IMG/VR virus record: IMGVR_UViG_3300042885_001472
DNA length: 64,000 bases
Source: a virus
Lineage: Duplodnaviria > Caudoviricetes
Strand: one strand, 5' to 3'
Part shown: positions 1,667 through 50,306 of the stretch, in pieces
Position numbering within the stretch: the stretch's first letter is position 1
How the letters are laid out: every line of letters starts with the position of its first letter
Made by a program: the position numbers and the translations under genes
Notes under the pieces: model-generated
The model's input: the letters and a program-made list of their open reading frames with translations, nothing else
Database searches by the model: none
Told to the model about the DNA's origin: nothing

Positions 1667-1855
1667 ATGAGTAAAAACATTAAAAATTTGGTGAGTAGAG
1701 TTCTTAATGAGAGTATTGACGAAAGAATATACGATATGTTAAGAAAAAAAGAATTTAATACATTTAATCGATATTCTATAACAAAGTGGTTAGTTGATAT
1801 TGGTTTTACTGATCAGGAAGCTTACCATCAAAAACAATTATTAAAAAATTTCTGA
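1667..1855 (+). pseudogene. 5' half of a leader-bearing gene interrupted by the ice-binding-gene insertion
   Basis: MSKNIKNLVSRVLNE leader with TATTTAT 4 nt upstream. After ...TDQEAY the sequence switches to DNA homologous to the 3' end of the ice-binding gene (compare 1821-1874 with 3770-3823). Confidence 0.75.
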
Positions 1856-4043
1856 TTCTAAACTAATCAACACTTTTTATACACAATAAATAGTATAATA
1901 CATTATAAATGAAAAAATTAATACCCTATAAATTTTTAGTTATTACAATTTTGTTTTTGCAAAATGTGTTGCATTGCCAAACTACTATCTTAGGTAGTGC
2001 GGTAAATTTTGTTGTTTTTACAGGAGATGGTGATATCGCAAATACAGGAAGTTCACTTATAGCTGGTGATATTGGTACCAATTTAGGTGGTGTTAGCGGT
2101 TTAGCACCAGCAACATCAACCGTTACAGGAAATACTCATATTGCAAATTCTACTACAAATCAAGCAAAAATAGATTTGATTGCGGGCTTTACACTTTTAA
2201 TTTCTGTCCATGCAACTAACTCAATTCACCCACCTGCTTTTGGTATTGGAGAAACGGTATTACCAGGTATTTATGCCATTAGTGGTGCTGGTTCAGTTGG
2301 GGGTAACTTAACTTTAGATGCTCAAAATGATACAAATGCCGTATTTGTTTTTAGGTTTACGGGCGCATTTAATATTGGTGCAGCGGCAAATATTATATTA
2401 GCTAATAAGGCAAAAATATGCAATGTTTATTGGGTTTCTTATGGAGCAATCGGCATTGGCGCAGCAGCCTTTGTAAAAGGTAATTTTATAAGTAATTCGG
2501 CGGCTGTTTTTGTTGGAGCTACAACCTTGGTTGAAGGTAGATTGTTTAGTATTAGTGGTGCCATTACTTTTGGCCCATCACAATTAAAAATACCCCAATT
2601 ATGTGTTCCATCTTATTTTAGCAATTTTAATGCAACTTATAATTGTTTAGTGAGTGCAAAACCCAAATTTATGTTGTTTACATCAAGTGGTGCTGTTACA
2701 TTTCTTGGTAGTTCAAATTTAACAGGTGATATTGGTACAAATGCAGGAGGTATTACAGGTTATGGAACATCAACGGTTGTAGGAACTTATCATGCCTCAG
2801 ATTCTGTAACAAATCAAGCAAAATCAGATTTACAAACAACTTATGGTTATCTTACAGCTTTACCTGTTACAAACGCATTCCATACACCTGCATTGGTAGT
2901 TCTGAAGTTCTTAACCCTGGAGTATATTCCGTTGCTGGCGCTGGCTCTGTTAATGGTACCCTTACCTTAAATGCACAATGTGATACAAATGCCGTATTTG
3001 TTTTTAAGTTTGGTGGCGCATTTTCAGCTGCTGCCTCAAGCAAAGTAATTTTAATAAATAGTGCAAGAGCTTGTTCCGTTTATTGGATTGCAGAAGGTGC
3101 CATAACTTTTGCAGCCTCAACTACTTTTATAGGTAGTTTAATTTCGCATAACGGGGCTGTTAACATCGATAATTTTTGCAGTCTTGATGGCAGATTGCTT
3201 GCAATGAATGGCGCTATTTCAATTACTACTTCAACTGGGACATCAGTAGGAAATTGTGAAATTAATGAATGCAGTTTTTTGTCAATACAGTTGGTTTCGT
3301 TTAAAGCCAAATGTGAAAATAAAACTATAAAATTAGACTGGAGTACAGCCTCAGAAACTAATAATAATTATTTTTTAATTGAACGAAGTATAGATGCTAT
3401 TACCTGGCAAGTAGCTGCTAAAGTTGAAGGAGCGCTTAACTCATTACGTAATACGTATTATACTTATAATGATTTAAATAATAGTGCGGCACTTTTATAT
3501 TACCGTTTAAAACAGACAGATGTTGATGGGCAATTTAACTATTCACCAATCATTGATGTAAAAAATTGTGCAGAAGATGACACTGAAATATCTGTTTATC
3601 CAAACCCTGCCTACGAAATTTTAAACATAATTGTTAACCAGCCTGATGTAAAAATAGTTTCAGTAGCCATTTATAATATATTGGGAGAAGTAGTTTATTA
3701 TACTGAAAAATATCAATCACAAATTGTATTCGAAAATAAAGTATCAGGCGTTTATTTTCTGCATGTAAACTTACCATCAAAAACAATTATCAAAAAATTT
3801 TTAACCCTAAACTAACCAACACTTGTAATACATAATTATTTGAACAAAAAAATTATAAATGAAAAAATTAATACCCTATAAATTTTTAATTATTGCCATT
3901 TTGCTTTGGCAAAATGCGGTGTACGGTCAAGTAATTAACTTAGGTTCGGCGGCAAATTTTGCGCTCTTTACTGGTAGCGGAGCTGTTGCAAATACAGGTT
4001 CATCTACTATTACTGGCGATATTGGTTCTAATTTAGGCGCTTA
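1820..4043 (+). mobile_element. Captured host-derived DNA segment (tail of one gene copy, one full copy, head of the next) bounded by a GCTTA direct repeat
   Basis: GCTTA at 1820-1824 and 4039-4043. Internal ~1950-bp periodic homology. Codon usage is visibly richer in GCA/GCC/GGC than the flanks. No transposase or inverted repeats. Confidence 0.75.
1909..3815 (+). pseudogene. Ice-binding protein (two DUF3494 domains) with Ig-like domain and T9SS type A sorting domain; single-base frameshift near 2892
   Basis: Signal peptide and DUF3494 motifs (GDIGTNLG, LTLDAQNDTNAVFVF, NVYWV, GRLFSISGAI). The second domain continues in another frame (GSSEVLNPGVYSVAGAGSVNGTLTLNAQCDTNAVFVFKF...DGRLLAMNGAI) and joins ORF 3195-3815, which carries LVSF..DWSTASETNN..YYRLKQTD..YPNPA. 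Confidence 0.85.
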
Positions 4044-4296
4044 TGAGGGATATTCCGGTTATGGTGGTAAACCAGAGATTACTATAACACCAAGTGGTAA
4101 AAATAGGTATGATGTTGAATACACAATTCAGTTTGGAGATACTTTAATCAAACTTAATGGTGAATTAATACCATTTAATGATGGTAGACATATTGATTAT
4201 GAATTTGAGATAGGTTGGTCCCAGGATAAAGAATCTGAAGAATTTTATGATTTTAACTGGGAAATGGTTGAATATCAAATTAAAAGTGAATTATAA
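3859..4296 (+). CDS. Chimeric ORF: signal peptide and N-terminus of a second ice-binding gene fused to the 3' half of the interrupted gene
   Basis: The first ~62 aa match the start of 1909 (MKKLIPYKFL...GDIGSNLGAY), then switch abruptly to acidic unrelated sequence (EGYSGYGGKPEITITP...). Confidence 0.75.
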   Translation: MKKLIPYKFLIIAILLWQNAVYGQVINLGSAANFALFTGSGAVANTGSSTITGDIGSNLGAYEGYSGYGGKPEITITPSGKNRYDVEYTIQFGDTLIKLNGELIPFNDGRHIDYEFEIGWSQDKESEEFYDFNWEMVEYQIKSEL

Positions 4297-4310
4297 TATA
4301 TTTATATTAT

Positions 4311-4877
4311 ATGAAATCATTAATTAAAAAGATATTACAAGAAGTTAGAGTTCCCAGAGAAGAAAGGGTAGAACTATATAAAGATGATAACATTATTGTT
4401 GTTGTTCCTTTAACACATAGAGCTTTACAAAAGTACGCGAGTTTCTGTCAGTGGTGTATTAATGATGATAAACATGAATGGGAAGATTATCATAAAGGAT
4501 TACACGCGATCATCATTCAAAGAAAACCTAAAAAAGAGAGGATAGGTATAAGTGGTCACCCAACTGCGAGTGAAATTGTAACGTTTGAAAGATGGAGTGA
4601 AGGTGGTTACACTTTTAATGATTTTCAAGATATTTTAGGTTACGAATTTGATGGTGAAAATAAGGGACAAGCGATTAAAGAAGCTGAAAAATATTTTTTA
4701 CCATTGATTAAGGATATTGATAATTTCGCCACTAATATAACTTATTATTCACCCACAAATGGTATATATGATATGGAAGATAATAATTTATGGGGTTTTG
4801 ATTTTAAAATATCTGATATACCAAATGTAACCGATGAAGTTATAAATATAATGGATGATTATTTAACTGAAGGATAA
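4311..4877 (+). CDS. Leader-bearing protein with a PLT..A....WC domain related to 40415 and 48584
   Basis: MKSLIKKILQE leader; VVVPLTHRALQKYASFCQWCI resembles VYEPLTREANC..KFCTA of 48584. Confidence 0.7.
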   Translation: MKSLIKKILQEVRVPREERVELYKDDNIIVVVPLTHRALQKYASFCQWCINDDKHEWEDYHKGLHAIIIQRKPKKERIGISGHPTASEIVTFERWSEGGYTFNDFQDILGYEFDGENKGQAIKEAEKYFLPLIKDIDNFATNITYYSPTNGIYDMEDNNLWGFDFKISDIPNVTDEVINIMDDYLTEG

Positions 4878-4878: not shown

Positions 4879-5704
4879 ATGAACCTAAAAGAATCTATAA
4901 GAAGAATATTGAAAGAAGAAACTGAAGATTTATCATCATTCATAGAAAATATGTTAACTAAAACATTAGTTAATGACAATAAAGATATTTTATGTGGTGT
5001 TAAGGTCATTCACCCCAATCATAGGGAAAGTTTACCAGACGCTTTTGGAAATAATATTAAATTCACTAGTTATAAAGTGACATTCATATTTATTGGGGGG
5101 TATGGGACAAAAAATTGGCCTAAAACACAAAGTGTTGTGGGTAAATACGAGACTATTATGAATAAAGGTTGGGAATTGATTTACGATTATACAGACTTGG
5201 CTGTTGATGTATATTCAACGGAAGTTAAAAAATGTGATTAGTTTTATGAACCTACAAGAATCCATAAGAAGAATATTAAGAGAATCCAGATTTGAAAAAA
5301 TGGGTGAAGAAAGGTATAAATCTTGTTCTATGTCTGATATAACCAGAATGGAAATTATTGATAATTTTTTTAAAAAAATAGAAGAAAATCCAAATTATAG
5401 TATTGAAAAACCTAATTATGAAATGTTAATTGATGATTGGGATGGTTATGATGATCAAGTTTATATTCAAAACTTATTAGATGATAATAAAATTGTTTTT
5501 TATGAAGGATGGGTTGATTCTTGTTGGGAAGCGGTTTATAATAAACCCCAATACAAAGGTATGGGTAAGGAAGAGGTTATTGAAGACATTGTATTAAAAA
5601 GATTCCCAAGAATTGGTGAAGAATTTAATATGGGTTTATTGGATTATGGGTATTTTAATGACGGTGATGGATATATAATGTATGTGATATTTAAGAAATT
5701 ATGA
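4879..5704 (+). CDS. Two leader-bearing hypothetical proteins (4879-5241; 5246-5704, start corrected from 5204)
   Basis: Both begin MNLxESIRRILxE. Confidence 0.75.
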
Positions 5705-6108
5705 ACCTACGAGAATCCATAAAAAGAATATTAAAAGAAGATTATAGTCCAGCCGGTAAAGAAGTTACACCAAACAAAATTGTTATCCACAAATCAACCC
5801 CAATTTTTAGGGAAAGTATTCTAAAAAATGGTTTACAAGTAAAGACTGGTGAATGTTATAAAATATACGTTGGTTGGGGAACCAAGTGTGAACCCGCCAT
5901 TTTCGCTACCAACTCAATAAATAAAAGGGCTTGGTTTGATTCAACATATGATGATGATATTTGGGAAATAAATACAGAAATGATTCCTAACGTTAAGTGG
6001 TACAAAGATAGACATTATGATTCAAAATCAAAACATATTGTAACATTTCAAGATATACCAAAAGAAGCTATAAGATTAATTTATAAAGGTACAGGTGAAG
6101 ATGATTAA
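5701..6108 (+). CDS. Leader-bearing protein, possible ADP-ribosyltransferase-like fold
   Basis: MNLRESIKRILKE leader; IHKST..SILKNGL..AIFATN..IPKEAI pattern resembles small ART/KptA-like domains. Confidence 0.5.
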   Translation: MNLRESIKRILKEDYSPAGKEVTPNKIVIHKSTPIFRESILKNGLQVKTGECYKIYVGWGTKCEPAIFATNSINKRAWFDSTYDDDIWEINTEMIPNVKWYKDRHYDSKSKHIVTFQDIPKEAIRLIYKGTGEDD

Positions 6109-6171
6109 AATACTTTTAACTAATAGTAGGGTTTTACGTTTAGTAAGATATTTATCTTTAAACTTTTTAAT

Positions 6172-6654
6172 ATGAAATACAAGATAACCGAAAGTCAATA
6201 TAGAAGATTAATTAAAGAAAATGTTGATGACATTTTAGATAGAATGTCAGCTGGTGAAAATTTAAGACCTTCCGATAAAAGAAAGATGGACGCTTATAGT
6301 AAATATTTAAATACTGGTGGTAGAGAAAGTGATTTTGAGTACTCAGATCACCCAGAGTATGTTGAAAAAGAGGGTGAAGTTATTAAATCTACTTTAGCTG
6401 ATCAACCCATAGAATTTATATTTTCTGAAGAGAATGAATTGGAAGATGGTATCATTGAGTACTCTGGTAAAATATGGTTTGGTGGTAATCAATATATTGG
6501 TGTGATAGCGACAGATAAAAGTGGTTATTTAATTGATTACGATTTTTATGATGTAGATACTCCGGATGAAAGGTTACGTTATGTGATTGAAGGTTTGGAA
6601 CACGAACTTGATAATTTTTTTCAAACAGAGGTAATACCTACCCTACAGAAGTAG
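6172..6654 (+). CDS. Leader-bearing acidic hypothetical protein
   Basis: MKYKITESQYRRLIKE leader; GATATTTAT upstream. Confidence 0.75.
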   Translation: MKYKITESQYRRLIKENVDDILDRMSAGENLRPSDKRKMDAYSKYLNTGGRESDFEYSDHPEYVEKEGEVIKSTLADQPIEFIFSEENELEDGIIEYSGKIWFGGNQYIGVIATDKSGYLIDYDFYDVDTPDERLRYVIEGLEHELDNFFQTEVIPTLQK

Positions 6655-6655
6655 T

Positions 6656-7282
6656 ATGAAATATTTAATAACAGAATCACAATATAATTTATTACTAGAA
6701 CAAATTTCTGGTTTGGATGGTTTAATTGATAAAATATCTCAAACCTATAAGGAAATTGGTGAAAGTGATAAAAAACAAGAATATATTGATATGATTGATA
6801 AATTCATATCTGATTCTGGTGTTAAGAATATATTGGTTGAAGAAATCAAAATGGGTCTTGGTTTATCATTATCTGATAGGGTTATTATAAATACTAAAGC
6901 TTTCTCATTAACGTTACCAATGTTAACGTATGTGATTTTTCACGAAATAGCTCACCAATATCAATTTAAAAAATATGGTGCGGAAAAAATGTATGACTGT
7001 TATACTGGTGAAATAACTACAACACAAGGGGCTGAATTAATGAAATATATTGAAGAAGTGGCCGATGATTTCGCTTTAAGAAAGATTAGACAATTAGTTA
7101 AAATGGGATTTCCTATTAACCCTTCAGAACTTAGTGGTATTAAACCTATGTATAAAAATGTACCTTTATATCATTTTGTTTCATTAGTAGAAAATGTTAG
7201 GGGTATGATTGAGAATAAAAATATAACTACACCGGATAAGATTAGTGAATTCTTTTACAACTGGGTGAAAATTAATTTGTAA
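6656..7282 (+). CDS. Leader-bearing zincin-like metallopeptidase
   Basis: FHEIAHQYQ (HExxH) with a downstream EEVADDFA glutamate motif, as in ImmA/IrrE-type peptidases. Confidence 0.65.
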   Translation: MKYLITESQYNLLLEQISGLDGLIDKISQTYKEIGESDKKQEYIDMIDKFISDSGVKNILVEEIKMGLGLSLSDRVIINTKAFSLTLPMLTYVIFHEIAHQYQFKKYGAEKMYDCYTGEITTTQGAELMKYIEEVADDFALRKIRQLVKMGFPINPSELSGIKPMYKNVPLYHFVSLVENVRGMIENKNITTPDKISEFFYNWVKINL

Positions 7283-8298: not shown

Positions 8299-9206
8299 AT
8301 GGAAGGTTTAATTAAAAAAATTTTAAAGGAAAACATTGAGGAGAAGTTATACAATATAACCTTAAAAGATCTTAAAATTAAGGGTCTTAGTTTTGAATTT
8401 GAAACAAGTTCTTTTGATACTGGTGGTGAGATGTATGACGAATATACTGAATTATTTGATGATTATATAAACGATAATTGGGAAAATTATTTTACAAATG
8501 TAAGTTTAGATGACGATGATGAACCATCATCATTCACCAAAGTAGATGATCCGGATGGACCTGAATACGATTATGATGAAATGAACCACGAAATGATTTA
8601 TATATTCATTGATGAGATGAAAAAAAAGGGTTTTATTACTGAAACTAGTTTAAGTAAATATGAATCAACTTATACTATAATAACCGATACTTTAAAAGTT
8701 AACTTACCCAATAAGGGTTCATATACCTTACATATTAATGAAAAACCAGATGGTACTGTAGGGTTAAATATTAGAGATCTTGACGCACAATTATTATTCA
8801 CAGATTTAATACAAATTACAATGGATTATGGTTATGAATATCTTACAGAAATGAATGATTTTAAAAAAAGATTTTATAACGATATTATGAATAAATTAAA
8901 TGAATATAAGATTGAATTTTCTGATTCATTTATAAAATTAACACCAAATGTATTGAAATTTACGATATGAAAAAAATAATTAAATTAACGGAATCGGATT
9001 TAAATAGAATAGTTAAAAAGATAATTAACGAATCTTATGATCCAGATAGGTTATATGACCGAGGTAAGGTTGTTAGTTCATTAAAGAATGGACCACCAAT
9101 GGTTAGAAAATTCATTAAGAATTTACCCATCATTGAATGTGATAATAAAATATGTACAAAAATACCAGAATTTTTATATGTTTATTTAAGTGGTAAACTC
9201 TATTAA
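8299..9206 (+). CDS. Two leader-bearing hypothetical proteins (8299-8970, 8967-9206)
   Basis: MEGLIKKILKE and MKKIIKLTESDLNRIVKKIINE leaders; ATGA start/stop overlap. Confidence 0.75.
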
Positions 9207-9209
9207 GAA

Positions 9210-9755
9210 ATGAAAATATTGATAAAAAAGATATTATTAGAACAGAATGAATCTGTTGATAATAAGGTTAAAGAACTTATGTTTAACTCAGATGATTGGG
9301 ATGGATTCATTGAAGCCTTAAAAGTTAAGTATGGTAATATAATTTCACTTTATCACGCCACAACCATTAAAAATTCTAATATAATTGATCAAGAAGGTTT
9401 TAGATTAACATTTGGTAAAAATAAAAAGTCCTGGGCACATGAACCATTAATCTATTTTCAAATAGGTAAATCTGATTATATTGATGATGATAGAAGTGTT
9501 CTTTATCGTTTAGATGTACCAGTAGAATTTATAGAACAATATGGTTATATTGATATGGATAATGTTATCATTAGTGATGAAGAATTGATGTCCTCCGGTG
9601 TTGAATTTGAAGGTATGAGTTCTGATATGAAAGAGGCTGTAGAGTATTTTATATGGAATGATATGAGTTTAGATGGTATGGAAATAATGATCCAGGATAG
9701 GGATGGTGAGGGTAATATTTTCAAGGGGTTAATACCAACCAAAATAAGTGGTTAA
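9210..9755 (+). CDS. Leader-bearing protein, possible ART-like fold
   Basis: MKILIKKILLE leader; SLYHATTIKNSNIIDQEGFR resembles the YHGT..I...GF strand of ART-like domains. Confidence 0.45.
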   Translation: MKILIKKILLEQNESVDNKVKELMFNSDDWDGFIEALKVKYGNIISLYHATTIKNSNIIDQEGFRLTFGKNKKSWAHEPLIYFQIGKSDYIDDDRSVLYRLDVPVEFIEQYGYIDMDNVIISDEELMSSGVEFEGMSSDMKEAVEYFIWNDMSLDGMEIMIQDRDGEGNIFKGLIPTKISG

Positions 9756-10243
9756 CGTTTAAGATTTAATATTACTTTAGGTATTAAACTAGTTTCCTCT
9801 GGATATTTTTCAATATAACTACTAAGATCTCCATCTTTAGTGTAACCCATTTCTTTTGTGTTCCATACTCTACAAGTATCTGAAATACTATTCGCGATTA
9901 AAACCATAGTGTCATCATCAAGTAGTGTTTTATATCTACCACCCCAAGATGATCCACCATCACCCCCACCCCAACAATTAATTTTATGATGTCTTCCAAC
10001 TTCAATATGAACATTTCGGTTAATACCCATACTATTATAACCTCTCTGTGATTTACCACATTCAACAAAAGATTCGTGGATGGTCAATAAACCTATCTCA
10101 CCTTTTTCAAGATAATTTTCATCAATAATTTTTGAGTAGGGTATATATAGTTCTGGTAATGATAAACTATCACCTTGTACAAATGGCATCATATTACATT
10201 TGATACCGGTCAATTTTGGGAATTTAATTTTATTTACTATCAT
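9752..10243 (-). CDS. Hypothetical protein (start corrected from 10270), possibly C-terminally truncated
   Basis: ATGA overlap with the MTase stop; IHES..SQRG..HIE..WGGG..IANSISDTCRVW motifs; ends overlapping the convergent gene. Confidence 0.55.
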   Translation of the reverse strand: MIVNKIKFPKLTGIKCNMMPFVQGDSLSLPELYIPYSKIIDENYLEKGEIGLLTIHESFVECGKSQRGYNSMGINRNVHIEVGRHHKINCWGGGDGGSSWGGRYKTLLDDDTMVLIANSISDTCRVWNTKEMGYTKDGDLSSYIEKYPEETSLIPKVILNLKR

Positions 10244-17668: not shown

Positions 17669-17672
17669 TGTT

Positions 17673-19510: not shown

Positions 19511-19517
19511 ATTTTAA

Positions 19518-37463: not shown

Positions 37464-38366
37464 ATGAAAATTATCATTACAGAATCTCAATATGAATTAC
37501 TAAACGAACAATTAGCTAAATACATTGGTAAAGGTATTGGTAAATTATTTAAATCAACACCAAAGGTTATTAAGTCAATTACACCGGAAATTAAAACATT
37601 AAATAGTGAATTATATAGAGTAATTCCACCTCAATATTTAAAAAACGAAAAAGAAGTTTCTTTATATATTTCCAGATTAAAAAGTCTTAATCAAGATTTA
37701 AATAAAATAAATGTGGATTACATAAAAAAATATGGACAAAAAGCGTATGATGATATTTTAATAAATTTTATTCTTGGTGGTTCTAACGAGAAAACTTTTT
37801 TAAATACATTAAAGAATGTGAAAAACCCAAATATAAGATTAAAACCCATTTTAGGTTTAGGTCGAGAACATTATGTATTTGAATCGGTATTATACCCTAA
37901 TAAAATTATTAAAGTTGAATCATCTCCTGGTACTATTAATAAATGGTATAGTATTTTTAAAAGTAGACCTGATATTTTTCCAGTAATGTTTAAAACTTTA
38001 AAAGTAACTGGTAAGGAAGGTGAAAAATTAATGGGTGTTGTTTTGGAAAGATTAGATACTTCAAAATTCATAAAATTATGGGGTGAAATTGAATCTGAAA
38101 TGTATCCACTTTTTAAAAATTTACCAATATCAGAAAGAGAAGTTTCATTGGAAGGTATTGTCAAATATATTAAAACCCCTAAAGTGAGAAAACAATGGGT
38201 AGAACTTTTAAATTTTACAAAAAAAGAAAAGCCTAATTTAACTCGAAGTATTGATGAGTTTTCAAAGATGGTGAATGAATTATATAAAATAACACCAAAT
38301 CCTGACATTAGAAAATTTAATTTTGGTTATGATGATAAAGGTGTTTTAAAATGTTTAGATATTTAA
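37464..38366 (+). CDS. Leader-bearing protein-kinase-like domain
   Basis: LGLGREHYVF Gly loop, IIKV lysine, VLERLD hinge, PDIRKFNFG catalytic loop (DxxxxN), terminal LDI. Confidence 0.65.
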   Translation: MKIIITESQYELLNEQLAKYIGKGIGKLFKSTPKVIKSITPEIKTLNSELYRVIPPQYLKNEKEVSLYISRLKSLNQDLNKINVDYIKKYGQKAYDDILINFILGGSNEKTFLNTLKNVKNPNIRLKPILGLGREHYVFESVLYPNKIIKVESSPGTINKWYSIFKSRPDIFPVMFKTLKVTGKEGEKLMGVVLERLDTSKFIKLWGEIESEMYPLFKNLPISEREVSLEGIVKYIKTPKVRKQWVELLNFTKKEKPNLTRSIDEFSKMVNELYKITPNPDIRKFNFGYDDKGVLKCLDI

Positions 38367-38398: not shown

Positions 38399-39337
38399 AT
38401 GAAAAACTTAAATGAACAAATAGAAAGGATTAATCAATTATCCGAATATAAGGTTGGTGTTGTTATTAATGAACAATCATCAACTGGGTGTAATTATTCT
38501 GATTATCAAAATGGTGATGGTATTAAAAAACCAAAAATTACGGTCACTAAATCACCGACTGGTGTTGATTTAACATATGAGGGTCCGGAAACTGGTTTTT
38601 GTATACAACATTCAAAAGGTTCTACCGGTGATAGTATTCACCAATTAGCTGGTGTGACTCGTGTAATTGTTTCACAATATCTAAAAGAATTATATAAACA
38701 AGGAACATTTGTTTATCCAGATTTAAAAAATATTGGTATGACTAAAAAAGATAAATTTTTTAGTATTAATGTACCATTTGTTAAAACTACTGAAAGTAAG
38801 GCTATCACAAATTTCAATGAACGTGGTGGTTGGGGACATACCGGTAACGATTCATTTAACGATTTTCTATCCACAATATCTGATACCACAAAATATGGTT
38901 TAGTTACTAAAGAAACTAAAGTGGCTTCTGGTGGTAATTCACCTGACATTACTGAAAATTGGGTATCATTTAGAGATCTTGAAAAATTTCCTATTATGAC
39001 ATCAACTGAAGGTGTGGATGAGTCTAATGAAAAAATTGAAAAAATTGAACATAATAATAATCCAAATATTTTAAGAGAAAGGTTAAAAAAGTTGGGTGTT
39101 ATAATCAATCCAAGTGTCAAATATGTGGGTACTAATAATGGGTATGTTGAAGTAAAATACTTAACAAATTGTCCTAATGAAGGAAAATGTGATAAAGTAA
39201 ATTTAAGTTATGTTTTTTCTGATAGTGGTGAAGAAGATACTGTATTAGAAAAAGTTAAAATTAAAAATACTATTGTAGATGAAATTGATTATTCTATGAA
39301 AGGTGTTAAAGGATATATTATTACTATCCAACAATAA
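38399..39337 (+). CDS. Leader-bearing hypothetical protein
   Basis: MKNLNEQIERINQLSEYKVGVVINE is nearly identical to the 35277 leader; the rest is unrelated. Confidence 0.75.
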   Translation: MKNLNEQIERINQLSEYKVGVVINEQSSTGCNYSDYQNGDGIKKPKITVTKSPTGVDLTYEGPETGFCIQHSKGSTGDSIHQLAGVTRVIVSQYLKELYKQGTFVYPDLKNIGMTKKDKFFSINVPFVKTTESKAITNFNERGGWGHTGNDSFNDFLSTISDTTKYGLVTKETKVASGGNSPDITENWVSFRDLEKFPIMTSTEGVDESNEKIEKIEHNNNPNILRERLKKLGVIINPSVKYVGTNNGYVEVKYLTNCPNEGKCDKVNLSYVFSDSGEEDTVLEKVKIKNTIVDEIDYSMKGVKGYIITIQQ

Positions 39338-39343: not shown

Positions 39344-39814
39344 ATGAAACTATTAATTAAAAAAATCTTAAAGGAAAATATTGATGATAAAATATTTGAT
39401 TTTGTTTTAACTAACATTGAAAGGGGAATTATTAAACCACCCTACGTTAAAACTTTGTCTGAAGATTTTGATTTACCTAATGATCAAATTAAAAGTATAT
39501 TGAAAAAAATTATTGGTGGTAAAGTTACTATGTATAAAAATGGTGATACACTGGTTATTGATCGTAGGGAAAACCGTTTATATGAAGAACATAAAGATGG
39601 TTGGTGGATTAAACAACTTTTTGATGAAAGGGATAATTTAATTTATAGTGAAACTCACGATGGTTGGGCTAAATGGGAATATGATGGGAATCGGAATCTG
39701 ACATACTATGAAAATGATGAAGGTACTTGGGAAAAGATAATGTATGATAAGTGGTCTAATAAAATAATTTATAATGAAACATCTGATGAAGGTGTAGTTA
39801 AAGATCTTAGATGA
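39344..39814 (+). CDS. Leader-bearing protein with YxExxxG-W-K repeats
   Basis: Three to four repeats of N-x-x-Y-x-E-x-x-[DE]-G-W-x-K (beta-hairpin-type repeat). Confidence 0.65.
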   Translation: MKLLIKKILKENIDDKIFDFVLTNIERGIIKPPYVKTLSEDFDLPNDQIKSILKKIIGGKVTMYKNGDTLVIDRRENRLYEEHKDGWWIKQLFDERDNLIYSETHDGWAKWEYDGNRNLTYYENDEGTWEKIMYDKWSNKIIYNETSDEGVVKDLR

Positions 39815-40308
39815 AAAATTTAATTAGGAAAATATTAAAAGAATCAGTTGATAATAGAGTTATAGGTCTTATCAATAAAATGAATTTATCAACTTTTAGT
39901 GAAATTGATAACTTTTTAGAAGAGGTTGGGTATAGTGATGATGAAATTATTGAAATTTATCACAATTACTTTAAAACTATTAGTGGTTTAGAATTAAATC
40001 CTACAAACTGGATGGACTTTTACTTTAGTCCTGATCAATTGGAAATTTTTGAAGATAATAATTATCCCAATACATTATTTATCAAAAAAAATGGTAAGGT
40101 TGTAATGGAAAAAGATAAAAATTTTGAGGAAAATAAATATAAGATTATTTTTATAGATTATCGTTTAATTTGGTCTGTACTTAATAACTTATTTTTTATG
40201 AAAGATACGGAAGTAACTAATTTTTTAAATGAATGGTTGGAAGAAAATTTTAAAATAAAAAACTACAAACCTGTTTATCAATCGTTATCAACATACGGAA
40301 GTAACTAA
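39811..40308 (+). CDS. Fourth member of the 27507-29222 paralog family
   Basis: MKNLIRKILKESVDNRVI..YFKTISGLELNPTNWMDFYFSPDQLEI..KKNGKVVME. Confidence 0.85.
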   Translation: MKNLIRKILKESVDNRVIGLINKMNLSTFSEIDNFLEEVGYSDDEIIEIYHNYFKTISGLELNPTNWMDFYFSPDQLEIFEDNNYPNTLFIKKNGKVVMEKDKNFEENKYKIIFIDYRLIWSVLNNLFFMKDTEVTNFLNEWLEENFKIKNYKPVYQSLSTYGSN

Positions 40309-40429: not shown

Positions 40430-41713
40430 ATGAAATTGTATATGAATTTAAGTAAAATAATTAAAGAAGTTATTAATGAGTCGATTTTAACTGAAGCTTT
40501 TACTATTGAAGATTTAAAGGATAAATTCGTTAATAAAGGAACTATTGATGAAGAAACTTTTGAAGAAATAATTGGGTTTAATTTAAAAATAAATTACACT
40601 AGTTGGTTACTAAAAATGGTAAACACTAATTTAATCCCCTCAGAAGATGTCTATCAATTTATCCATTATTTAGAAGTTTTTAATAAATTTAAAAATCTTT
40701 ACCCTATTAAAGATATTAATCGTATCAATAAAAATGAGGAAATTGAAGAATTCATCAAAACATCAATTAAAATAATTGAACAAAGTAGTACTAGTGGTCA
40801 AGAAACGAAGGGTGATAAGAATTATGTTACACCAACAGAAATTTCAAGGTTAGATAGGGTTGGTATAAGTTTTTTAGGTACGATTAGTAGATACCAAGTC
40901 TTTAAAATACCTTACACCATTAATCCTGAAGCGACCTGGAAAGAATATAGAGAAATATTAGGTAGATGTTCTGGTAGAGGTAGTGGTTTATTAGACCCTG
41001 ATGGTGAACCAGTGGCTGTTAAATTTTGTACTATAGCTACACTACCACGTTTTAAACAATACACAGAAGATGGTCCAATGTATGTATTTTTTAATACAGC
41101 TGATCATTTAAGTCCTTATCAATTTCACTATGAAAGTAGTCAGTATAAAGACAGAAGAAATCTAAACATATTTACGGGTGTAAAAATAGGTAGTAAAGAA
41201 TTTAAAATTTATAATTCATTTTTTAACTTTTTATTTGAAAAAGAAGGGAGGGTTATACCTAAAGATGTGTTTGATATTTATATGAAACCAGAATCCAATG
41301 GAATAATAAGTCCTAAAAATATAAAATTATTTGCCCAAGAATTTGGTATAAATACGATACCAACAGAATATTTAGATTCATTACGTGAAAGTTATATTAG
41401 AACAATTAATAATAGTTTAAAAAAATCAAAAATTAATACCATTCCTTTAGAATTTTATGTAAACATACAAAATATATTTAACCCAAAAAATTCAAAATAT
41501 GTTTTAGATTTTTTAAAAAGTAATAGTATTAAAGCACCACAAGAATTGATTGATTTGTCTGAACGTAAGATTAATAAATTTTCAACTATGAGTGACACTG
41601 AATTAAAACAATACCCTAAAGGAATTGGGGGGAGTAAAAATGTTGACTGGTATGAAAGTACTGAATTTGATGAGTGGGAAAAAGAGATAGAACTTAGAAA
41701 TTTTTTTAAATAA
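40430..41713 (+). CDS. Leader-bearing protein, paralog of the 48584 N-terminal region (start corrected from 40415)
   Basis: WLLK..YLEVFNKFK..KFCT..F..YTEDG..YQFHYESSQYKD is shared with 48584. Confidence 0.75.
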   Translation: MKLYMNLSKIIKEVINESILTEAFTIEDLKDKFVNKGTIDEETFEEIIGFNLKINYTSWLLKMVNTNLIPSEDVYQFIHYLEVFNKFKNLYPIKDINRINKNEEIEEFIKTSIKIIEQSSTSGQETKGDKNYVTPTEISRLDRVGISFLGTISRYQVFKIPYTINPEATWKEYREILGRCSGRGSGLLDPDGEPVAVKFCTIATLPRFKQYTEDGPMYVFFNTADHLSPYQFHYESSQYKDRRNLNIFTGVKIGSKEFKIYNSFFNFLFEKEGRVIPKDVFDIYMKPESNGIISPKNIKLFAQEFGINTIPTEYLDSLRESYIRTINNSLKKSKINTIPLEFYVNIQNIFNPKNSKYVLDFLKSNSIKAPQELIDLSERKINKFSTMSDTELKQYPKGIGGSKNVDWYESTEFDEWEKEIELRNFFK

Positions 41714-41715: not shown

Positions 41716-42396
41716 ATGAGAAAAAAAATTATACAATTAACGGAATCAGATCTTAGAGAATTAGTCCGTAAAATAATGGTTGAGGTTGAGTTACCTACGG
41801 AAGAAGTATCTGATCCGGTAATAGATTCAATAAGAGATAGGGTTATTGATCATGAGGGTAAACGAAATACGGTTTATAAAGATTCTCGTGGAATACCCAC
41901 AATAGGTGTTGGTTTTAATTTAAATAGACAAGATTCAAACGCTTTATTAACACAAGTTGGGGCTAATCCTGGACAAATAAAACGAGGACAAAGTAAACTT
42001 AGTAATAAACAAATTAATACATTATTAAATAAAGACCTTAAAAAATCTAAAGAAGACGCTAAACAATTAGTTAAAAACTTTACAGGATTACCATCAGAAA
42101 TACAAGGTGTACTTATTGAAATGGTATTTAATTTAGGTAAGTTTGGTTTAGCTAAATTTAAGAAATTTTTAGATTACATTAATAAAAAAGATTGGAAAAA
42201 AGCTTCAATTGAAATGTTAGATTCTGATTGGTCTAAACAAGTTGGTAGACGTTCTAAAACACTTTCAAATATAATCGCGTTACAAGGTTCATATGGTGAT
42301 TTATCTAACGCTAAAAATGTTTATGATAAACTTAACCAAACTGATGTTTTTATGGGTAAACAATTTGATAAAAATACTGGTTTAAAGATTAATTAA
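41716..42396 (+). CDS. Leader-bearing GH24 (T4-type) lysozyme
   Basis: HEGKRNTVYKDSRGIPTIGVGFNL (E-x8-D-x5-T triad), MVFNLG..L.KF, WSKQVGRR. Confidence 0.88.
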   Translation: MRKKIIQLTESDLRELVRKIMVEVELPTEEVSDPVIDSIRDRVIDHEGKRNTVYKDSRGIPTIGVGFNLNRQDSNALLTQVGANPGQIKRGQSKLSNKQINTLLNKDLKKSKEDAKQLVKNFTGLPSEIQGVLIEMVFNLGKFGLAKFKKFLDYINKKDWKKASIEMLDSDWSKQVGRRSKTLSNIIALQGSYGDLSNAKNVYDKLNQTDVFMGKQFDKNTGLKIN

Positions 42397-44730: not shown

Positions 44731-45408
44731 ATGAAATATTTAATAAAAAAAATACTAAACGAAATTGTATTCAATCCTGATAGAGAAAAATTTAAATGGA
44801 GAGATATTGGTTCATTAAATGTTAATGGTAAAAAAATACATACTAGTACTTTTAGGACTCCAACTTATAAATATATAGTAAACGCTGAGGAATATCCAAA
44901 TCATTTTTATTTAATTTCATTTTATCCTTCACTAAATACTGATTTTTTTGTGAAACAATTTTTGAAACAAGAAAGGGGTCGTACTTATTATGATAAGTAT
45001 AGTTATAGAACAAATGAAAAAGTTATATCACCAGAAGATCAGGTGAGATTATCTAAAATGGGTGGTAAAGAAAGAAGGGAAGAACTTAATAAATTACCTT
45101 CAATGGCCTATAAAGTTTTTGCCTTAATAATGGAATATATGGATGAAATATTAAAAAAAGATCCATTAGCTTCATTCGGATATTTTGGTGCTGCGGATTC
45201 AAAAGGATCTGAAAATCCTGATGATGATATAATTGACACTAAAAGATTTAGAGTTTATAGATTAATGTTAGATGATCGTTTTAAAAATACACATACACCA
45301 TACCATAAAGAATCATTTAGTGGATCACTATATATTAATAATGAAGCTGAGAATAATTTCCCTAATATTATTGAGTTTGCCAATAAAATTTTACAGAGTC
45401 ACCTATAA
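44731..45408 (+). CDS. Leader-bearing hypothetical protein
   Basis: MKYLIKKILNE leader; TATTTAT 4 nt upstream. Confidence 0.75.
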   Translation: MKYLIKKILNEIVFNPDREKFKWRDIGSLNVNGKKIHTSTFRTPTYKYIVNAEEYPNHFYLISFYPSLNTDFFVKQFLKQERGRTYYDKYSYRTNEKVISPEDQVRLSKMGGKERREELNKLPSMAYKVFALIMEYMDEILKKDPLASFGYFGAADSKGSENPDDDIIDTKRFRVYRLMLDDRFKNTHTPYHKESFSGSLYINNEAENNFPNIIEFANKILQSHL

Positions 45409-46194: not shown

Positions 46195-46740
46195 ATGGAA
46201 CATATAATTAAAAAATTATTAGTGGAAATGATTTCAAATGAAGAATTACCATTAAATAAACTTGAAATACTTGCGTTAAAATTTTTAACAAAAACCAATT
46301 TAACTCCAAAAACAAATCAAAATATTATAATTAAAAAATTGATGTCTGAGTTAGATTTTACGCGTGAAGAAGCCGTTAAAATTTACTTTTTATTTCTGAG
46401 TAATTACCGAAAAGATTCTGATTATGAGAGTATTATTACTCCAAATAGATCTTCATTCACTAAAAGTACTAGTACATCCAATAAAAGAGGTAGAGATTTT
46501 GTGATAAATAGAATTCCGTTTACCGGTTCAAATACAATGGGAAAATATGTTGGTGGGGTTTATGTTGTAACTTCATATAATTGGTACCCAATCTTTGTTT
46601 TTAAAAATGGTCAATGGTATGAAAATGAAAGTGGTTATAGTATGAGTACTAAAAAACAAATTAGTCAATTAAGACCTAATGGTGAGAATATTATAAAATT
46701 AAAAGTGGATGAGTTGAAGGATTTGTATTCTTCTTACTAA
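46195..46740 (+). CDS. Leader-bearing hypothetical protein
   Basis: MEHIIKKLLVE leader; TATTTAT 4 nt upstream. Confidence 0.75.
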   Translation: MEHIIKKLLVEMISNEELPLNKLEILALKFLTKTNLTPKTNQNIIIKKLMSELDFTREEAVKIYFLFLSNYRKDSDYESIITPNRSSFTKSTSTSNKRGRDFVINRIPFTGSNTMGKYVGGVYVVTSYNWYPIFVFKNGQWYENESGYSMSTKKQISQLRPNGENIIKLKVDELKDLYSSY

Positions 46741-47831: not shown

Positions 47832-48176
47832 ATGAATATATTAATAAATGGTAGAGAATATCCGTTAGAAGTTAAATTAACACAAAAATCTAAATCCAAG
47901 GGGATGATGGGTAGAAATAATCTAAATGGTGGAATGATATTTATATTTGATAAACCACAAACACACTCTTTCTGGATGAAAGATTGTTTAATACCCTTAG
48001 ATATCATTTTTTTAAGGGGTAATACGATTACAACCATACATCATTCATGTAAACCTTGTGATAAAGATGAATGTGAACGTTATGAAGGTATTGGTGACTC
48101 AGTATTAGAGTTTTTAGGGGGTTTTTGTAAAGATAATGAACTTAGTGTGGGTGACCATGTTGAATTTGTTCATTAA
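47832..48176 (+). CDS. DUF192 family protein
   Basis: KGMMGR..GMIFIF..SFWMKD..PLDIIF..VLEF.GG..GD.V. Confidence 0.85.
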   Translation: MNILINGREYPLEVKLTQKSKSKGMMGRNNLNGGMIFIFDKPQTHSFWMKDCLIPLDIIFLRGNTITTIHHSCKPCDKDECERYEGIGDSVLEFLGGFCKDNELSVGDHVEFVH

Positions 48177-48477
48177 TAGTTAAATTAAGTTGATTTAGTA
48201 TCTTTATCTCAATAATTCTGAGTTCTTTATTCTTTTTTTTAATTTTATTTAACACTTCAGTCACTACTTTTATTGGTACTTCATTATCACTAACCCTATA
48301 TCTAATTTCATCAATATGTTTATCATCACTTAATCTTCTCAATTCATTCACTAATGAATCATATAAATTCCATTCATCCTTACTTTCATTAAACAATGAT
48401 CTACCATAAATCATTCTTTTACGGTAATCTGTTTTCAACAAAGATTCTTTTAATATCTTTTTTAATTTTTTTCTCAT
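48142..48477 (-). CDS. Leader-bearing hypothetical protein
   Basis: MRKKLKKILKE leader; TATTTAT 5 nt upstream on minus. Confidence 0.7.
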   Translation of the reverse strand: MRKKLKKILKESLLKTDYRKRMIYGRSLFNESKDEWNLYDSLVNELRRLSDDKHIDEIRYRVSDNEVPIKVVTEVLNKIKKKNKELRIIEIKILNQLNLTINEQIQHGHPH

Positions 48478-48583
48478 TTATAATAAATATTTTATTATAT
48501 TTGTAACCACTAAATAAATTATAACTTTTTTTAGTAAAAGTAGATATTTAATAATAGGTTAAAATCATTAATAACGTTAAACT

Positions 48584-50074
48584 ATGGGTAAAGTAAAAGT
48601 TAAAATAACAGAATCTCAAATGAATTATTTATTTGAGAATAGTAGAATTGATTATTTAAAAAATCAATTTGGTGTAATAAGTAATACGGAATTTGAAGAA
48701 CTTTCAAAAGCTGAAAGAACAAAAGGAAGGGGTAGAAAACCAAAAGACGTAACACCTTCAGATGTTGAAGGTACTGAGACACCAAAAGAAAAGAATTATA
48801 CATTAACTCCAATTAAAACACCAGAAGGTGGGTTAATCGCTTTAATCTTAACGGATGAGAAGGGTAAAAGTAAAGTTAGAATTTCAGAAGAAACTTTTAA
48901 TAATATAGTTAACGCTGATCCAACAAATAATAAAATTTATGTTCAATGGTTATTAAAAATTTTAATTGAGTTCATCAAACATAAAGATTTTGAAGAAGCG
49001 GCCAGATTTGTTGATGAAGATTTACCACAATTAAGTCAAACATTAGTGGTTTTTGATGAAGTCAAAAATCTTAATAAGTTTAAAACTTACGCGGCAAATG
49101 AACCTGGATTACCTAGTAACCCTTCAAATATTTTAAGTTATACTTCAATAACACAACTTTATTTGGCTATTGAACCTTATATTGAAAAATCTGATGCTAG
49201 TGATTTAGAAAAAGCGTTAAATAAATTTATTAAATTAAAGGAAGCTAAAATTGTTTATGAAGATAGTAAATGGTTAGTTTATGAACCATTAACAAGAGAA
49301 GCTAACTGTGCTTTACCAAATCCTGGTTTAGTTAAATTTTGTACTGCTAACCCTGGAAATAGTTACTTTCAAAGATACACCTCAGAAGGTGGTAACTTAG
49401 GTCCTGGTGGAGAAAAATCAAGAATTTACGATATTATAAATAAAAAAGTGTTGACTGGTGAAAGTGGAGAAGTTTATCAATTCCATTTTGAAAGTGAACA
49501 ATGGAAGGACGCTAGTAATGGACCTAATATAAATCTTGTAAATTTTTTTAGTGCTAATCCAGGATTAGGTCAATTTTTTAGTGACATCTTAAAAGACTTA
49601 GCTAAAAGACTTAACGTTAATGACTTAGAAAGAAATAAATATTTAAGAATTTTATCACAAATTGGTGAAATTGATAATATTTTAGAATATTTTGATGTTG
49701 ATTCTGAATCAATAGATCTTAAAAGTTATAGACTTAAAAATTTATCTTCTGATATTAGTAATTTTAAAAATTTATACTCTTTATCACTTAATAATGCTGG
49801 TTTAAAATCATTCCCAAATGAGATAACTAAACTTAGTAATTTAGCGATATTATTTGCACCAAATAATAATATTAAAGAACTACCTAAAGATTTTGGGGAT
49901 TTAAAAGAGTTACACGTACTTAATCTTGAAGGTAACCCACTTAAAGAATTGCCGGAATCTATTTCTAAATTGAATGGTAATTTCTTAAAAATTAAACTTC
50001 CTAAAGAGATGTCTGAGGAGGCTAAAAGTAGAGCCACAAAATTATTATCAAAAACGACAATTACTTGGGTATAA
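48584..50074 (+). CDS. Leader-bearing protein with C-terminal leucine-rich repeats
   Basis: About four LxxLxLxxNxLxxLP repeats (LHVLNLEGNPLKELP); the N-terminal region is paralogous to 40430. Confidence 0.8.
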   Translation: MGKVKVKITESQMNYLFENSRIDYLKNQFGVISNTEFEELSKAERTKGRGRKPKDVTPSDVEGTETPKEKNYTLTPIKTPEGGLIALILTDEKGKSKVRISEETFNNIVNADPTNNKIYVQWLLKILIEFIKHKDFEEAARFVDEDLPQLSQTLVVFDEVKNLNKFKTYAANEPGLPSNPSNILSYTSITQLYLAIEPYIEKSDASDLEKALNKFIKLKEAKIVYEDSKWLVYEPLTREANCALPNPGLVKFCTANPGNSYFQRYTSEGGNLGPGGEKSRIYDIINKKVLTGESGEVYQFHFESEQWKDASNGPNINLVNFFSANPGLGQFFSDILKDLAKRLNVNDLERNKYLRILSQIGEIDNILEYFDVDSESIDLKSYRLKNLSSDISNFKNLYSLSLNNAGLKSFPNEITKLSNLAILFAPNNNIKELPKDFGDLKELHVLNLEGNPLKELPESISKLNGNFLKIKLPKEMSEEAKSRATKLLSKTTITWV

Positions 50075-50162
50075 ATAATTTTAGATAAAGATTAACTTTT
50101 CATTTATCAACCATATTTATAGTTATAATACTAGTATAACAATTTAATAAAAAAACTAAAAA

Positions 50163-50306
50163 ATGGGTAAAAAAATTAGATTAACTGAATCAGAATTAAT
50201 CAATCTTCTTGAAAGAATCGTAACAGAACATAAAAAAGAAGAAAAGATGAATAAAATTAATGAAAGTAGAAGAGAAAAACTTCAAAATCGTAGAAGATTA
50301 AAATAA
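50163..50306 (+). CDS. 47-aa basic peptide consisting mostly of the shared leader (missed by the ORF track)
   Basis: MGKKIRLTESELINLLERIVTEHKKEEKMNKINESRREKLQNRRRLK*; ATATTTAT at about 50114; terminator follows. Confidence 0.65.
   Translation: MGKKIRLTESELINLLERIVTEHKKEEKMNKINESRREKLQNRRRLK

Follow-up and report, generated by a model that had tools for sequence, protein, structure and literature searches.

Candidate prohead-targeting leaders on diverse proteins of an uncultured T4-related jumbo phage

In phage T4, the internal proteins IPI, IPII, and IPIII carry the N-terminal capsid-targeting sequence (CTS) MKTYQEFIAE (Mullaney and Black 1996, as cited in PMC5694885), and the internal-protein genes of T-even phages are polymorphic (PMC3012670). 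Propeptides are also borne by ejection and inner-body proteins of the phiKZ-like giant phages phiKZ, 201phi2-1, and SPN3US, together with an S80 protease (PMC5694885). The DNA analyzed here, a stretch of 64,000 nucleotides from IMG/VR record IMGVR_UViG_3300042885_001472 (hereafter the window), comes from an uncultured giant relative of T4, a jumbo phage with T4-like head genes. A preliminary description had proposed that a T4-style targeting and protease leader is attached to diverse cargo proteins in this window. That core idea fits everything that could be tested, and the overall reading is partly supported: the leaders are most likely T4-type prohead-targeting propeptides, a view we hold with moderate confidence, and would belong to an enlarged form of the T4 system for head loading and trimming.

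Leader-bearing genes in the window

The leader genes, a leaderless paralog, and two Clp genes that bear on their interpretation are located as follows.

1667-1855, + strand: 62-aa gene, weak class A leader MSKNIKNLVSRVLNE; TATTTAT 4 nt upstream of the ATG
4311-4877, + strand: 188-aa gene, class A leader MKSLIKKILQE, then conserved body VRVPREER...
4879-5241, + strand: 120-aa gene, class A' leader MNLKESIRRILKE
5246-5704, + strand: 152-aa gene, class A' leader MNLQESIRRILRE
5701-6108, + strand: 135-aa gene, class A' leader MNLRESIKRILKE, then ART-type (Tpt1/KptA-like) body
6172-6654, + strand: 160-aa gene, class B leader MKYKITESQYRRLIKE
6656-7282, + strand: 208-aa gene, class B leader MKYLITESQYNLLLE; weak hint of a YgjP-like metallopeptidase (E 0.1)
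8299-8970, + strand: 223-aa gene, class A leader MEGLIKKILKE
8967-9206, + strand: 79-aa gene, class B leader with a class A core inside, MKKIIKLTESDLNRIVKKIINE
9210-9755, + strand: 181-aa gene, class A leader MKILIKKILLE
12947-14548, + strand: 533-aa gene, leader MKSLIKEHLKRLILE
27507-28145, - strand: 212-aa gene, class A leader MKKLIKQILKE; paralog family
28180-28665, - strand: 161-aa gene, class A leader MKQLIKKILKE; paralog family
28749-29222, - strand: 157-aa gene, class A leader MKNLIRTILKE; paralog family
29379-29813, - strand: 144-aa paralog of the 27507/28180/28749/39811 family, without leader or promoter box
32709-33437: ClpP-like protein
34440-34757, + strand: 105-aa gene, weak leader MKNVIRE...
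34791-35162, + strand: 123-aa gene, class A leader MKDLIKKILKE
35277-36455, + strand: 392-aa gene, class C leader MKTLNEQIERINQLSNYEVGVLLSE
37464-38366, + strand: 300-aa gene, class B leader MKIIITESQYELLNE
38399-39337, + strand: 312-aa gene, class C leader MKNLNEQIERINQLSEYKVGVVINE
39344-39814, + strand: 156-aa gene, class A leader MKLLIKKILKE
39811-40308, + strand: 165-aa gene, class A leader MKNLIRKILKE; paralog family
40430-41713, + strand: 427-aa gene, leader MKLYMNLSKIIKEVINE
41716-42396, + strand: 226-aa gene, class B leader MRKKIIQLTESDLRELVRKIMVE; phage-lysozyme domain from residue 46
44731-45408, + strand: 225-aa gene, class A leader MKYLIKKILNE
46195-46740, + strand: 181-aa gene, class A leader MEHIIKKLLVE
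48142-48477, - strand: 111-aa gene, class A leader MRKKLKKILKE
48584-50074, + strand: 496-aa gene, class B leader MGKVKVKITESQMNYLFE; leucine-rich repeats at the C-terminus
50163-50306, + strand: 47-aa ORF, class B leader MGKKIRLTESELINLLERIVTE
50337-55544: intein-split ClpC

All 28 N-termini carry a short leader with a terminal (Leu/Ile)-x-Glu, although the leader is weak at 1667 (MSKNIKNLVSRVLNE) and 34440 (MKNVIRE...). The 28 positions in the preliminary description are all real ORF starts with the N-termini claimed for them, except that for the minus-strand genes 27507, 28180, 28749, and 48142, which do have leaders, the coordinate given was the low end of the gene and the true starts are 28145, 28665, 29222, and 48477. 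The three leader types it distinguished exist but do not separate cleanly, as they overlap and type B includes the type A core (LTESDLNRIVKKIINE), and the form MNLxESIRRILKE, which it had placed under type A, is better split off as a fourth class, A'. The class consensus is MKxLIKKILKE for A, MNLxESIRRILRE(ELNE) for A', MKxxITESQY/LTESDL..E for B, and MNLxEQISRIxxMMGxxE for C.

The motif search of N-termini that had been suggested shows leaders enriched in the window genes relative to shuffled sequences. A loose pattern within the first 24 residues matches 25 of the 139 called genes, against an expectation of 1.8 and a maximum of 7 in 1000 within-protein shuffles, while a strict pattern matches 12 times against 0.055 expected and occurs inside proteins once per 16,129 internal residues scanned; N-terminal enrichment is ~14-fold for the loose pattern and ~200-fold for the strict one. 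As claimed, neither of the two small-gene arrays (14.5-27.2 kb and 55.6-64 kb), both of which were scanned, has an N-terminal leader. Beyond the window, exact coding patterns for MKxLIKKILKE were found in 112 IMG/VR stretches, compared with 6 irrelevant matches in 596 Gb of bacterial genomes. The hydrophobic-x-Glu tripeptide is itself common, which counts against reading the leader as a cleavage site.

When the first 25 residues were cut off and the bodies compared all against all by BLASTP, no similarity at E<=1e-3 was found beyond one paralog family (27507, 28180, 28749, and 39811 with leaders, plus the leaderless copy at 29379-29813) and one weakly similar pair (40430 and 48584), and it is only for these that the description of the bodies as unrelated fails. 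Among the domains assigned to the cargo, lysozyme (41716, PF00959, E 2e-13), leucine-rich repeats (48584), and an ART-type fold (5701, Foldseek match to Tpt1/KptA, E 1.4e-5) were recovered, but the kinase-like, OmpA-like, and PcfJ-like labels found no Pfam or PHROG support in the genes concerned, and the zincin label reduces to the weak YgjP-like hint in 6656. Most cargo proteins have no recognizable function, and the effector cocktail envisaged in the preliminary description is hypothetical.

Modularity of the leaders and the junction glutamate

Two cargo families are represented by numerous metagenomic homologs, 213 for 4311 and 236 for 5701. In the family of 4311, 92 of 92 members have a Glu (P1; Glu11 in 4311) directly before the conserved body and Leu, Ile, or Val at P3, with leaders that range from 6 to 31 residues and belong to several classes. 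In the family of 5701, a Glu lies 0-2 residues ahead of the body in 116 of 117 homologs, with leaders of class A' (51), B (35), C (17), and A (8). Judged from these homologs, orthologous bodies accept any of the four leader classes, and the junction Glu stays constant; that of the 4311 family could alternatively be part of the conserved body. Two-domain members of the 4311 family (n=22) contain an internal leader-like linker in which hydrophobic-x-Glu abuts the body, and this tripeptide persists even where the remaining leader has decayed. In the AlphaFold2 (AF2) models, the bodies of 4311 and 5701 are well folded (pLDDT above 85-90), whereas residues 1-9 of 4311 are disordered (pLDDT <50, compared with 89 overall) and residues 3-15 of 5701 form a detached, low-confidence helix (pLDDT <50); both leaders are thus predicted to be separable from, and to lie outside, the cargo fold.

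A modular leader outside the predicted fold, with hydrophobic residues at i, i+1, i+4, and i+5 and Lys flanks that make its helix strongly amphipathic, might also be expected of a docking or localization helix that is retained uncleaved and ties diverse proteins to one shared partner, for instance a membrane, a hub protein, or a site on the virion surface. We consider this unlikely. The junction Glu is invariant regardless of leader class or length, and six-residue leaders exist (MGILTE and MTKLNE) that are too short for such a helix. In addition, because hydrophobic-x-Glu survives in linkers with a decayed leader, a cleavage site fits better than a docking surface.

Prohead protease, relatives, and upstream sequences

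Two contigs overlap the window at 100% identity, over 11,113 and 2,064 bp, and extend past its end, where the gene order is TerL, a T4-type portal with an intein, Peptidase_S77, a 95-aa leader gene, an acidic scaffold, and the Gp23 capsid protein (PF07068). A check for a gp21/S80-like prohead protease had been proposed, and a gp21-type enzyme is indeed present (227 aa, PF03420, Pfam S77, ~18.5 kb beyond the window end), but the relevant family is S77, not S80. The 95-aa gene, with the class B leader MKLKVKITESQLEE, begins 3 nt after the protease gene and is the only gene with a leader in the ~30 kb beyond the window end, head genes included. Identity to the nearest isolates in the protease and the capsid protein is only 41-47%, and no phage in culture was found to carry these leaders. 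Six relatives that belong to one capsid-protein clade have 1-6 small genes with leaders in the interval from protease to scaffold; in five relatives from two other capsid clades, no leader gene adjoins the protease. S77 is present in 13 of 30 leader-bearing contigs, including all three that are at least 90% complete. In one relative (G009), 46 of 421 genes (~10%) match the loose pattern, among them a 769-aa PolyA_pol-type nucleotidyltransferase, and at this share a single capsid would have a great deal to hold, which speaks against packaging.

Synonymous leader codons are used at near genome-wide frequencies, which argues for selection on the leader peptide. It is, however, conceivable, if quite improbable, that the leader is instead a mobile start module, in which a promoter box and the first codons of a near-leaderless mRNA are spread by recombination and ensure expression of captured genes while the peptide has little function. 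Consistent with such a module, the ATATTTAT promoter box is found upstream of 11 of 25 leader genes compared with 8 of 114 others, TATTTAT-N4-ATG and TATTTAT-N5-ATG exceed expectation (11 occurrences vs 1.5 and 6 vs 1.6, respectively), 35277 and 38399 share a promoter and ~27 codons at ~90% DNA identity with sharp borders, and codon preferences differ by position, one Ile favoring ATT and another ATA. Nevertheless, 14 of the 25 leader genes lie inside operons without the box, and synonymous sites are otherwise near saturation, yet the amino-acid pattern is kept, with K/R and I/L/V exchanges and the invariant Glu across hundreds of diverged homologs and four classes. Moreover, the fusion proteins retain internal leader copies where no translation start is needed. 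In some of the relatives ATATTTAT precedes TerL, though it is not upstream of their protease, scaffold, or capsid genes, and within the window it also precedes the ClpC N-fragment, a non-virion gene; as the box is common to such genes, expression timing is not yet an argument for packaging.

The shared box, the presence of both ClpP-like and ClpC genes in the window, and the occurrence of a ClpC-like ATPase in 5/5 and ClpP in 4/5 leader-rich relatives would suit an N-terminal degron or recognition tag through which phage ClpC/ClpP limits protein lifetime or an unfoldase receives the proteins, but this is very improbable, as it predicts neither a constant Glu right where the domain begins nor leader genes in the head operon beside the prohead protease, one relative (G010, 96% complete) has leaders without a ClpP match, and another (G001) has a ClpP-like gene while being essentially leaderless (1 loose match in 259 genes). 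G001 argues equally against a link to the S77 protease, since it has an S77 match too, and, as far as gene content goes, co-occurrence with Clp does not discriminate for or against a degron.

A head-loading model and its relation to known systems

For the leaders as prohead-targeting propeptides, we infer the following course. The leader, a short, detachable, amphipathic N-terminal segment of 6-30 residues in four interchangeable classes, would bind the assembling scaffold core of the prohead and guide the attached protein into it. The gp21-family (S77) protease would then cut after the Glu of Leu/Ile/Val-x-Glu and remove the leader, and the trimmed cargo would be retained in the DNA-filled head and may be ejected into the host with the DNA. 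The putative cargo known so far comprises the ART-fold protein, the lysozyme, and the leucine-rich-repeat protein, most others having no recognized function. A more speculative extension, which we regard as rather doubtful, is that the four classes act as an address code and not as one tag and that the internal linkers make some genes true polyproteins. The classes would then differ in the amount, the time, or the place within the prohead that they specify, with class B for core proteins beside the protease and A, A', and C for mobile cargo, and the prohead protease would cut the polyproteins into several cargo proteins within the capsid. If this extension is correct, sequence could reveal the complete injected proteome, dozens of proteins in each phage, of a widespread uncultured jumbo-phage lineage of freshwater and marine environments, and the leaders could be used as portable packaging tags.

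The phiKZ-like phages resemble the system proposed here in having many (~50) head proteins and cleavage after the Glu of a short motif (PMC5694885), as well as diverged paralogs with conserved N-termini, e.g., SPN3US gp53 and gp54. Their protease, however, is of the S80 family, the motif is A/S/G-x-E, the propeptides are mostly long, and they belong to another phage lineage, whereas the head genes here are T4-like.

The T4 CTS is likewise an N-terminal leader of ~10 residues with an MK start and a hydrophobic-x-Glu end, common to otherwise unrelated proteins that are encoded at dispersed sites in variable regions, away from the head operon, with a gp21-family protease in the same genome. The resemblance between the CTS and the leaders is one of pattern only (MK start, hydrophobic residues at 4 and 7-9, Glu at 10-11); no significant similarity in sequence was detected, in peptides too short for a statistical test. 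Other gp21-processed T4 proteins (Alt, gp24, gp67, gp68, and gp22) have ITE/LRE/LIE ends that resemble the class B motif ITES/LTES and the double sites found in A', and the leaders in the T4 record are MELITE for Alt, MAKINELLRE for gp24, MEGLIE for gp67, and MLKEQLIAE for gp22. T4 packages Alt, an ADP-ribosyltransferase, and cargo protein 5701 also has an ART-type fold, although one closest to Tpt1/KptA and not to Alt. Small core-protein genes adjoin the protease gene in both phages, but T4 has 67 and 68 upstream of its protease gene 21, whereas the leader gene here lies downstream of the protease gene. The phage described here differs in scale and variety: 28 genes with a candidate tag in 64 kb, compared with the three internal proteins and Alt of T4; four or more interchangeable leader classes, 6-31 residues in length, where T4 has one; and fusion proteins that carry internal leader-like linkers.

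Leader-bearing genes of the window

The leaders, short N-terminal tags ending in hydrophobic-x-Glu on 28 genes of the window, are grouped here into classes A (MKxLIKKILKE), A' (MNLxESIRRILKE), B (MKxxITESQY or LTESDL), and C (MNLxEQISRIxxMMGxxE). Every gene start listed in the preliminary description coincides with a genuine ORF start and has the N-terminus given there, four minus-strand genes having been cited by their low coordinate, and the small-gene arrays at 14.5-27.2 kb and 55.6-64 kb, described as leader-free, indeed contain no leaders. The three leader types originally proposed are present but not fully distinct, as type B contains the core of type A, and MNLxESIRRILKE is better kept separate as A'. 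Of the 139 called genes, 25 have a loose leader pattern within their first 24 residues, against 1.8 expected and a maximum of 7 in 1000 within-protein shuffles, and these shuffles rule out chance as the origin of the enrichment. A strict pattern gave 12 matches against 0.055 expected and occurs once in 16,129 internal residues.

The bodies, that is, the remainder of these proteins, had been called unrelated, and this largely stands, as BLASTP detected no similarity after removal of the first 25 residues except in the following cases:

27507, 28180, 28749, 39811, and a copy at 29379-29813: one paralog family of bodies
40430 and 48584: one weakly similar pair

The copy at 29379-29813 has neither leader nor promoter. 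The cargo labels lysozyme (41716), LRR (48584), and ART-type fold (5701) were recovered, whereas kinase-like, OmpA-like, and PcfJ-like were not reproduced. Searches of Pfam and PHROGs left most of the cargo without a functional assignment, and the cargo carries no charge bias (median pI 5.7, vs 5.8 for other genes).

Upstream, a TATTTAT box lies 4 nt before the ATG in 11 cases (1.5 expected) and 5 nt before it in 6 (1.6 expected) within the window, for example at:

1656, 8288, 12936, 35266, 37453, 38388, 40419, 44720, and 46184: TATTTAT boxes

This fixed distance from start codons implies near-leaderless mRNAs and a phage-specific promoter. The box is commoner on leader genes (11/25) than on other genes (8/114). 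Genes 35277 and 38399 have the box and ~27 codons in common, at ~90% DNA identity and with sharp borders, which shows that promoter-plus-leader modules do move as DNA. It is nevertheless the peptide that appears to be the conserved object, since the box is missing from 14 of the 25 leader genes, the choice among synonymous codons in 33 class A leaders is close to that of the whole genome (Leu TTA 64% vs 65%), with K/R and I/L/V exchanges, and the amino-acid pattern is kept through hundreds of diverged homologs; the codon analysis rules out a purely RNA-level explanation. The ATATTTAT box is also found ahead of the ClpC N-fragment (55544) and, in some relatives, ahead of TerL; the protease, scaffold, and capsid genes lack it. 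As a marker of late expression, it failed: in the complete relative G009, its carriers are for the most part genes of unknown function, along with one helicase and one endonuclease.

Leaders on orthologous bodies

Two families allow leaders to be compared on the same body. Gene 4311 represents a very widespread family with 213 metagenomic homologs, 59-98% identical, and in 92 of the 92 members with an N-terminal VRVPR body, the residue directly before the conserved body (P1) is Glu and that two residues before it (P3) is Leu, Ile, or Val, although leader length ranges from 6 (MGILTE, MTKLNE, MKRISE) to 31 residues. Gene 5701 has 236 metagenomic homologs, with Glu 0-2 residues before the body in 116 of 117.

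Leader classes on orthologous bodies
4311 family (n = 92): A 18, A' 45, C 11, other (mostly short) 18
5701 family: A 8, A' 51, B 35, C 17

As different classes occur on the same bodies with an invariant junction Glu, these alignments suggest that the four classes are functionally equivalent, interchangeable modules and that the Glu is a conserved boundary. In 22 two-domain members of the 4311 family, the domains are separated either by a whole leader minus its Met (e.g., ...LQESIRRILREELNE before VRVPR) or by a decayed linker in which the terminal hydrophobic-x-Glu persists. Five homologs (P0007, P0069, P0100, P0102, and P0114) have a leader-domain-leader-domain layout, some retaining the internal Met; these may be polyproteins or may have arisen recently by fusion of neighboring leader genes.

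AlphaFold2 models built with the homolog alignments of both families gave confident bodies (mean pLDDT 89 for 4311 and 79 for 5701) with the leaders outside the fold; at pLDDT <50, residues 1-9 of 4311 are disordered and residues 3-15 of 5701 are helical. The 5701 body (5701-6108) matches Tpt1/KptA, an ADP-ribosyltransferase-superfamily fold (Foldseek E 1.4e-5). Foldseek returned no PDB match for the 4311 body, in which His/Cys residues H36, C46, C49, H61, and H65 are invariant.

The phage beyond the window and its relatives

The window is AT-rich (G+C ~28-30%) and contains small-gene arrays, DNA methyltransferase-like genes, an RNA ligase, a ClpP-like gene, and an intein-broken ClpC. Its sequence was found neither in INPHARED nor in a scan of JGI metagenome contigs, and the genome beyond it was reached by exact-protein look-ups from contig to contig, with 100% identity to the window across overlaps of 11,113 and 2,064 bp. 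The preliminary description had suggested T4-like processing by a gp21-type protease, and such an enzyme, a 227-aa prohead protease of Pfam S77 at 20527-21210 of stretch L176, is encoded by the window's own phage on these contigs, along with thymidylate synthase, large terminase, an intein-carrying T4-type portal, an acidic, scaffold-like protein at 8725-9933 of stretch L177, and a major capsid protein of Pfam Gp23. Given these T4-type head genes on contigs identical to the window, the window is part of an uncultured jumbo phage with a T4-type head. The phage is present in the JGI samples 3300020575 and 3300034105 and in ENA ERZ27272032 and ERZ27271747. By protease and capsid protein, the nearest isolates are Microcystis phage Mel-JY01, Flavobacterium phage immuto, and Rhodothermus phage RM378, at 37-47% identity.

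19422-19714, minus strand: tRNA Ile(GAT) and tRNA Leu(GAG), within the minus-strand small-gene array
32709-33437, plus strand: divergent ClpP-like gene, 17 kb from the split ClpC
50337-55544, minus strand: ClpC-type chaperone in pieces (Clp_N, two AAA modules, UVR, D2-small; Hint/intein signatures)
15218-18628 of the examined stretch L176, ~13 kb beyond the end of the window: portal gene of T4 type, 1136 codons, intein-interrupted (Pfam Portal_T4, Intein_splicing, Portal_T4)

The ClpC locus also holds a separate 493-aa ORF with endonuclease-like hints. In IMG/VR relatives the ClpP-like protein is 58-66% identical to that of the window; an unbroken ClpC-like ATPase (743-842 aa) was seen in 5/5 relatives and a canonical ClpP in 4/5.

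Leaders recur among the head genes of this lineage:

in the window's own phage, 3 nt after the protease gene, followed by the scaffold and capsid genes: 95-aa protein with a class B leader, beginning MKLKVKITESQLEE
8842-9270 of stretch L158, minus strand (opposite), flanked by the protease and scaffold genes: SprT-like (zincin) protein; class A leader, ATTTAT box
5439-7076 of stretch L169 (relative G002), directly upstream of the protease gene: 545-aa protein with a leader-like C-terminus, ...LRSIIRNIIKEELK

Apart from the 95-aa gene, no leader gene was found in the ~30 kb covered beyond the window, which include the head genes. At the same place, after the protease and before the scaffold, six relatives of one capsid clade have 1-6 small leader genes; in two other capsid clades, no leader gene adjoins the protease. 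The SprT-like leader protein is conserved at its position, with equivalents in G019, G007, G005, and G009. In G009, the capsid gene is followed ~1.8 kb downstream by the 4311 ortholog, a single 560-aa ORF separating the two.

Exact MKxLIKKILKE coding patterns were found in 112 IMG/VR stretches, and bacterial and archaeal genomes totaling 596 Gb gave 6 matches, none a bacterial homologue: a Winogradskyella glycan-cluster gene (2), non-coding sequence in a Clostridia MAG (3), and a phage contig in a Prochlorococcus single-cell assembly (1). The identity of these matches rules out a host-cell origin of the leader. The thirty leader-bearing viral contigs examined are fragments, from genomes that CheckV puts at very roughly 200-400 kb, and Pfam S77 is present in 13 of these contigs, including 3/3 that are at least 90% complete. 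G009 (318 kb) has loose leader matches in 46 of 421 genes, one encoding a 769-aa PolyA_pol-type enzyme; other relatives have the variant MKKSELKQIIKEEIxKVLNE, and the more distant G001 (42% G+C) has essentially no leaders. A tblastn search with the leader proteins found no match in cultured phages. Immuto, the nearest cultured relative examined for leaders, has one leader-like gene in the 59 kb examined (gp072, MKKSQIVKAVQEVLEE, in the head module) and is thus not a model for the expansion. The IMG/VR contig L163 (G027; 63,985 bp), a leader- and S77-bearing member of the same lineage, is equal in length to contig L151 (QCKH01000009.1) in the Prochlorococcus single-cell assembly AG-409-L21, possibly a host clue for this sub-clade or possibly a co-sorted particle.

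Interpretation and comparison with T4

On balance, we somewhat favor the view that the leaders represent the capsid-targeting and propeptide system of T4 in a greatly expanded form with several classes, in which the leader would bind the prohead core and be cleaved off, and the cargo would be retained in the virion and then ejected. Several observations count against it: the very large number of tagged genes, extending to the PolyA_pol-type enzyme; the two capsid clades lacking a leader gene beside the protease; and the placement of the ATATTTAT box at the ClpC N-fragment and some TerL genes rather than at the protease, scaffold, or capsid genes, so that expression timing gives no argument for packaging. 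A docking helix retained on the mature protein is unlikely, as it accounts less well than a T4-type system for the invariant Glu at the junction, the linkers inside fusion proteins, and the location in the head operon. The same three features are a poorer fit for a recombining start module, which we consider rather less probable still, and for a ClpC/ClpP degron, which is the least credible of all.

If the leaders act as in T4, they mark capsid-borne proteins of an abundant uncultured jumbo-phage lineage, the first to reach the host, and dozens of ORFans per genome could then be grouped together as candidates for an early-acting or anti-defence role. The interchangeable classes, invariant Glu, and internal sites give precise, cheap predictions for metaproteomics and protease co-expression assays, and the leaders may also find use beyond T4 as short tags for packaging.

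T4 has its small prohead-core genes 67 and 68 next to gene 21, and its processed proteins start MEGLIE (gp67), MELITE (Alt), MAKINELLRE (gp24), and MLKEQLIAE (gp22). Capsid proteins of the lineage keep L(I/L)NE ~20 residues before a conserved VVFPIVRRVF block, where gp23 has its LTE site. The leader-like C-terminal end of the G002 protein recalls the Alt C-terminal propeptide, and the ART-type fold of the 5701 body recalls packaged Alt itself. A full-text literature search found no paper with these leader strings and none describing such an expansion. Published work states that the capsid targeting sequence is the only part that T4 internal proteins have in common, and polymorphic internal proteins bearing it are known in T-even phages. 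The principle is already established for T4; what the present comparisons add is evidence from orthologs that the leader classes are interchangeable, that the processing-type junction is invariant, and that some of the proteins may be polyproteins.
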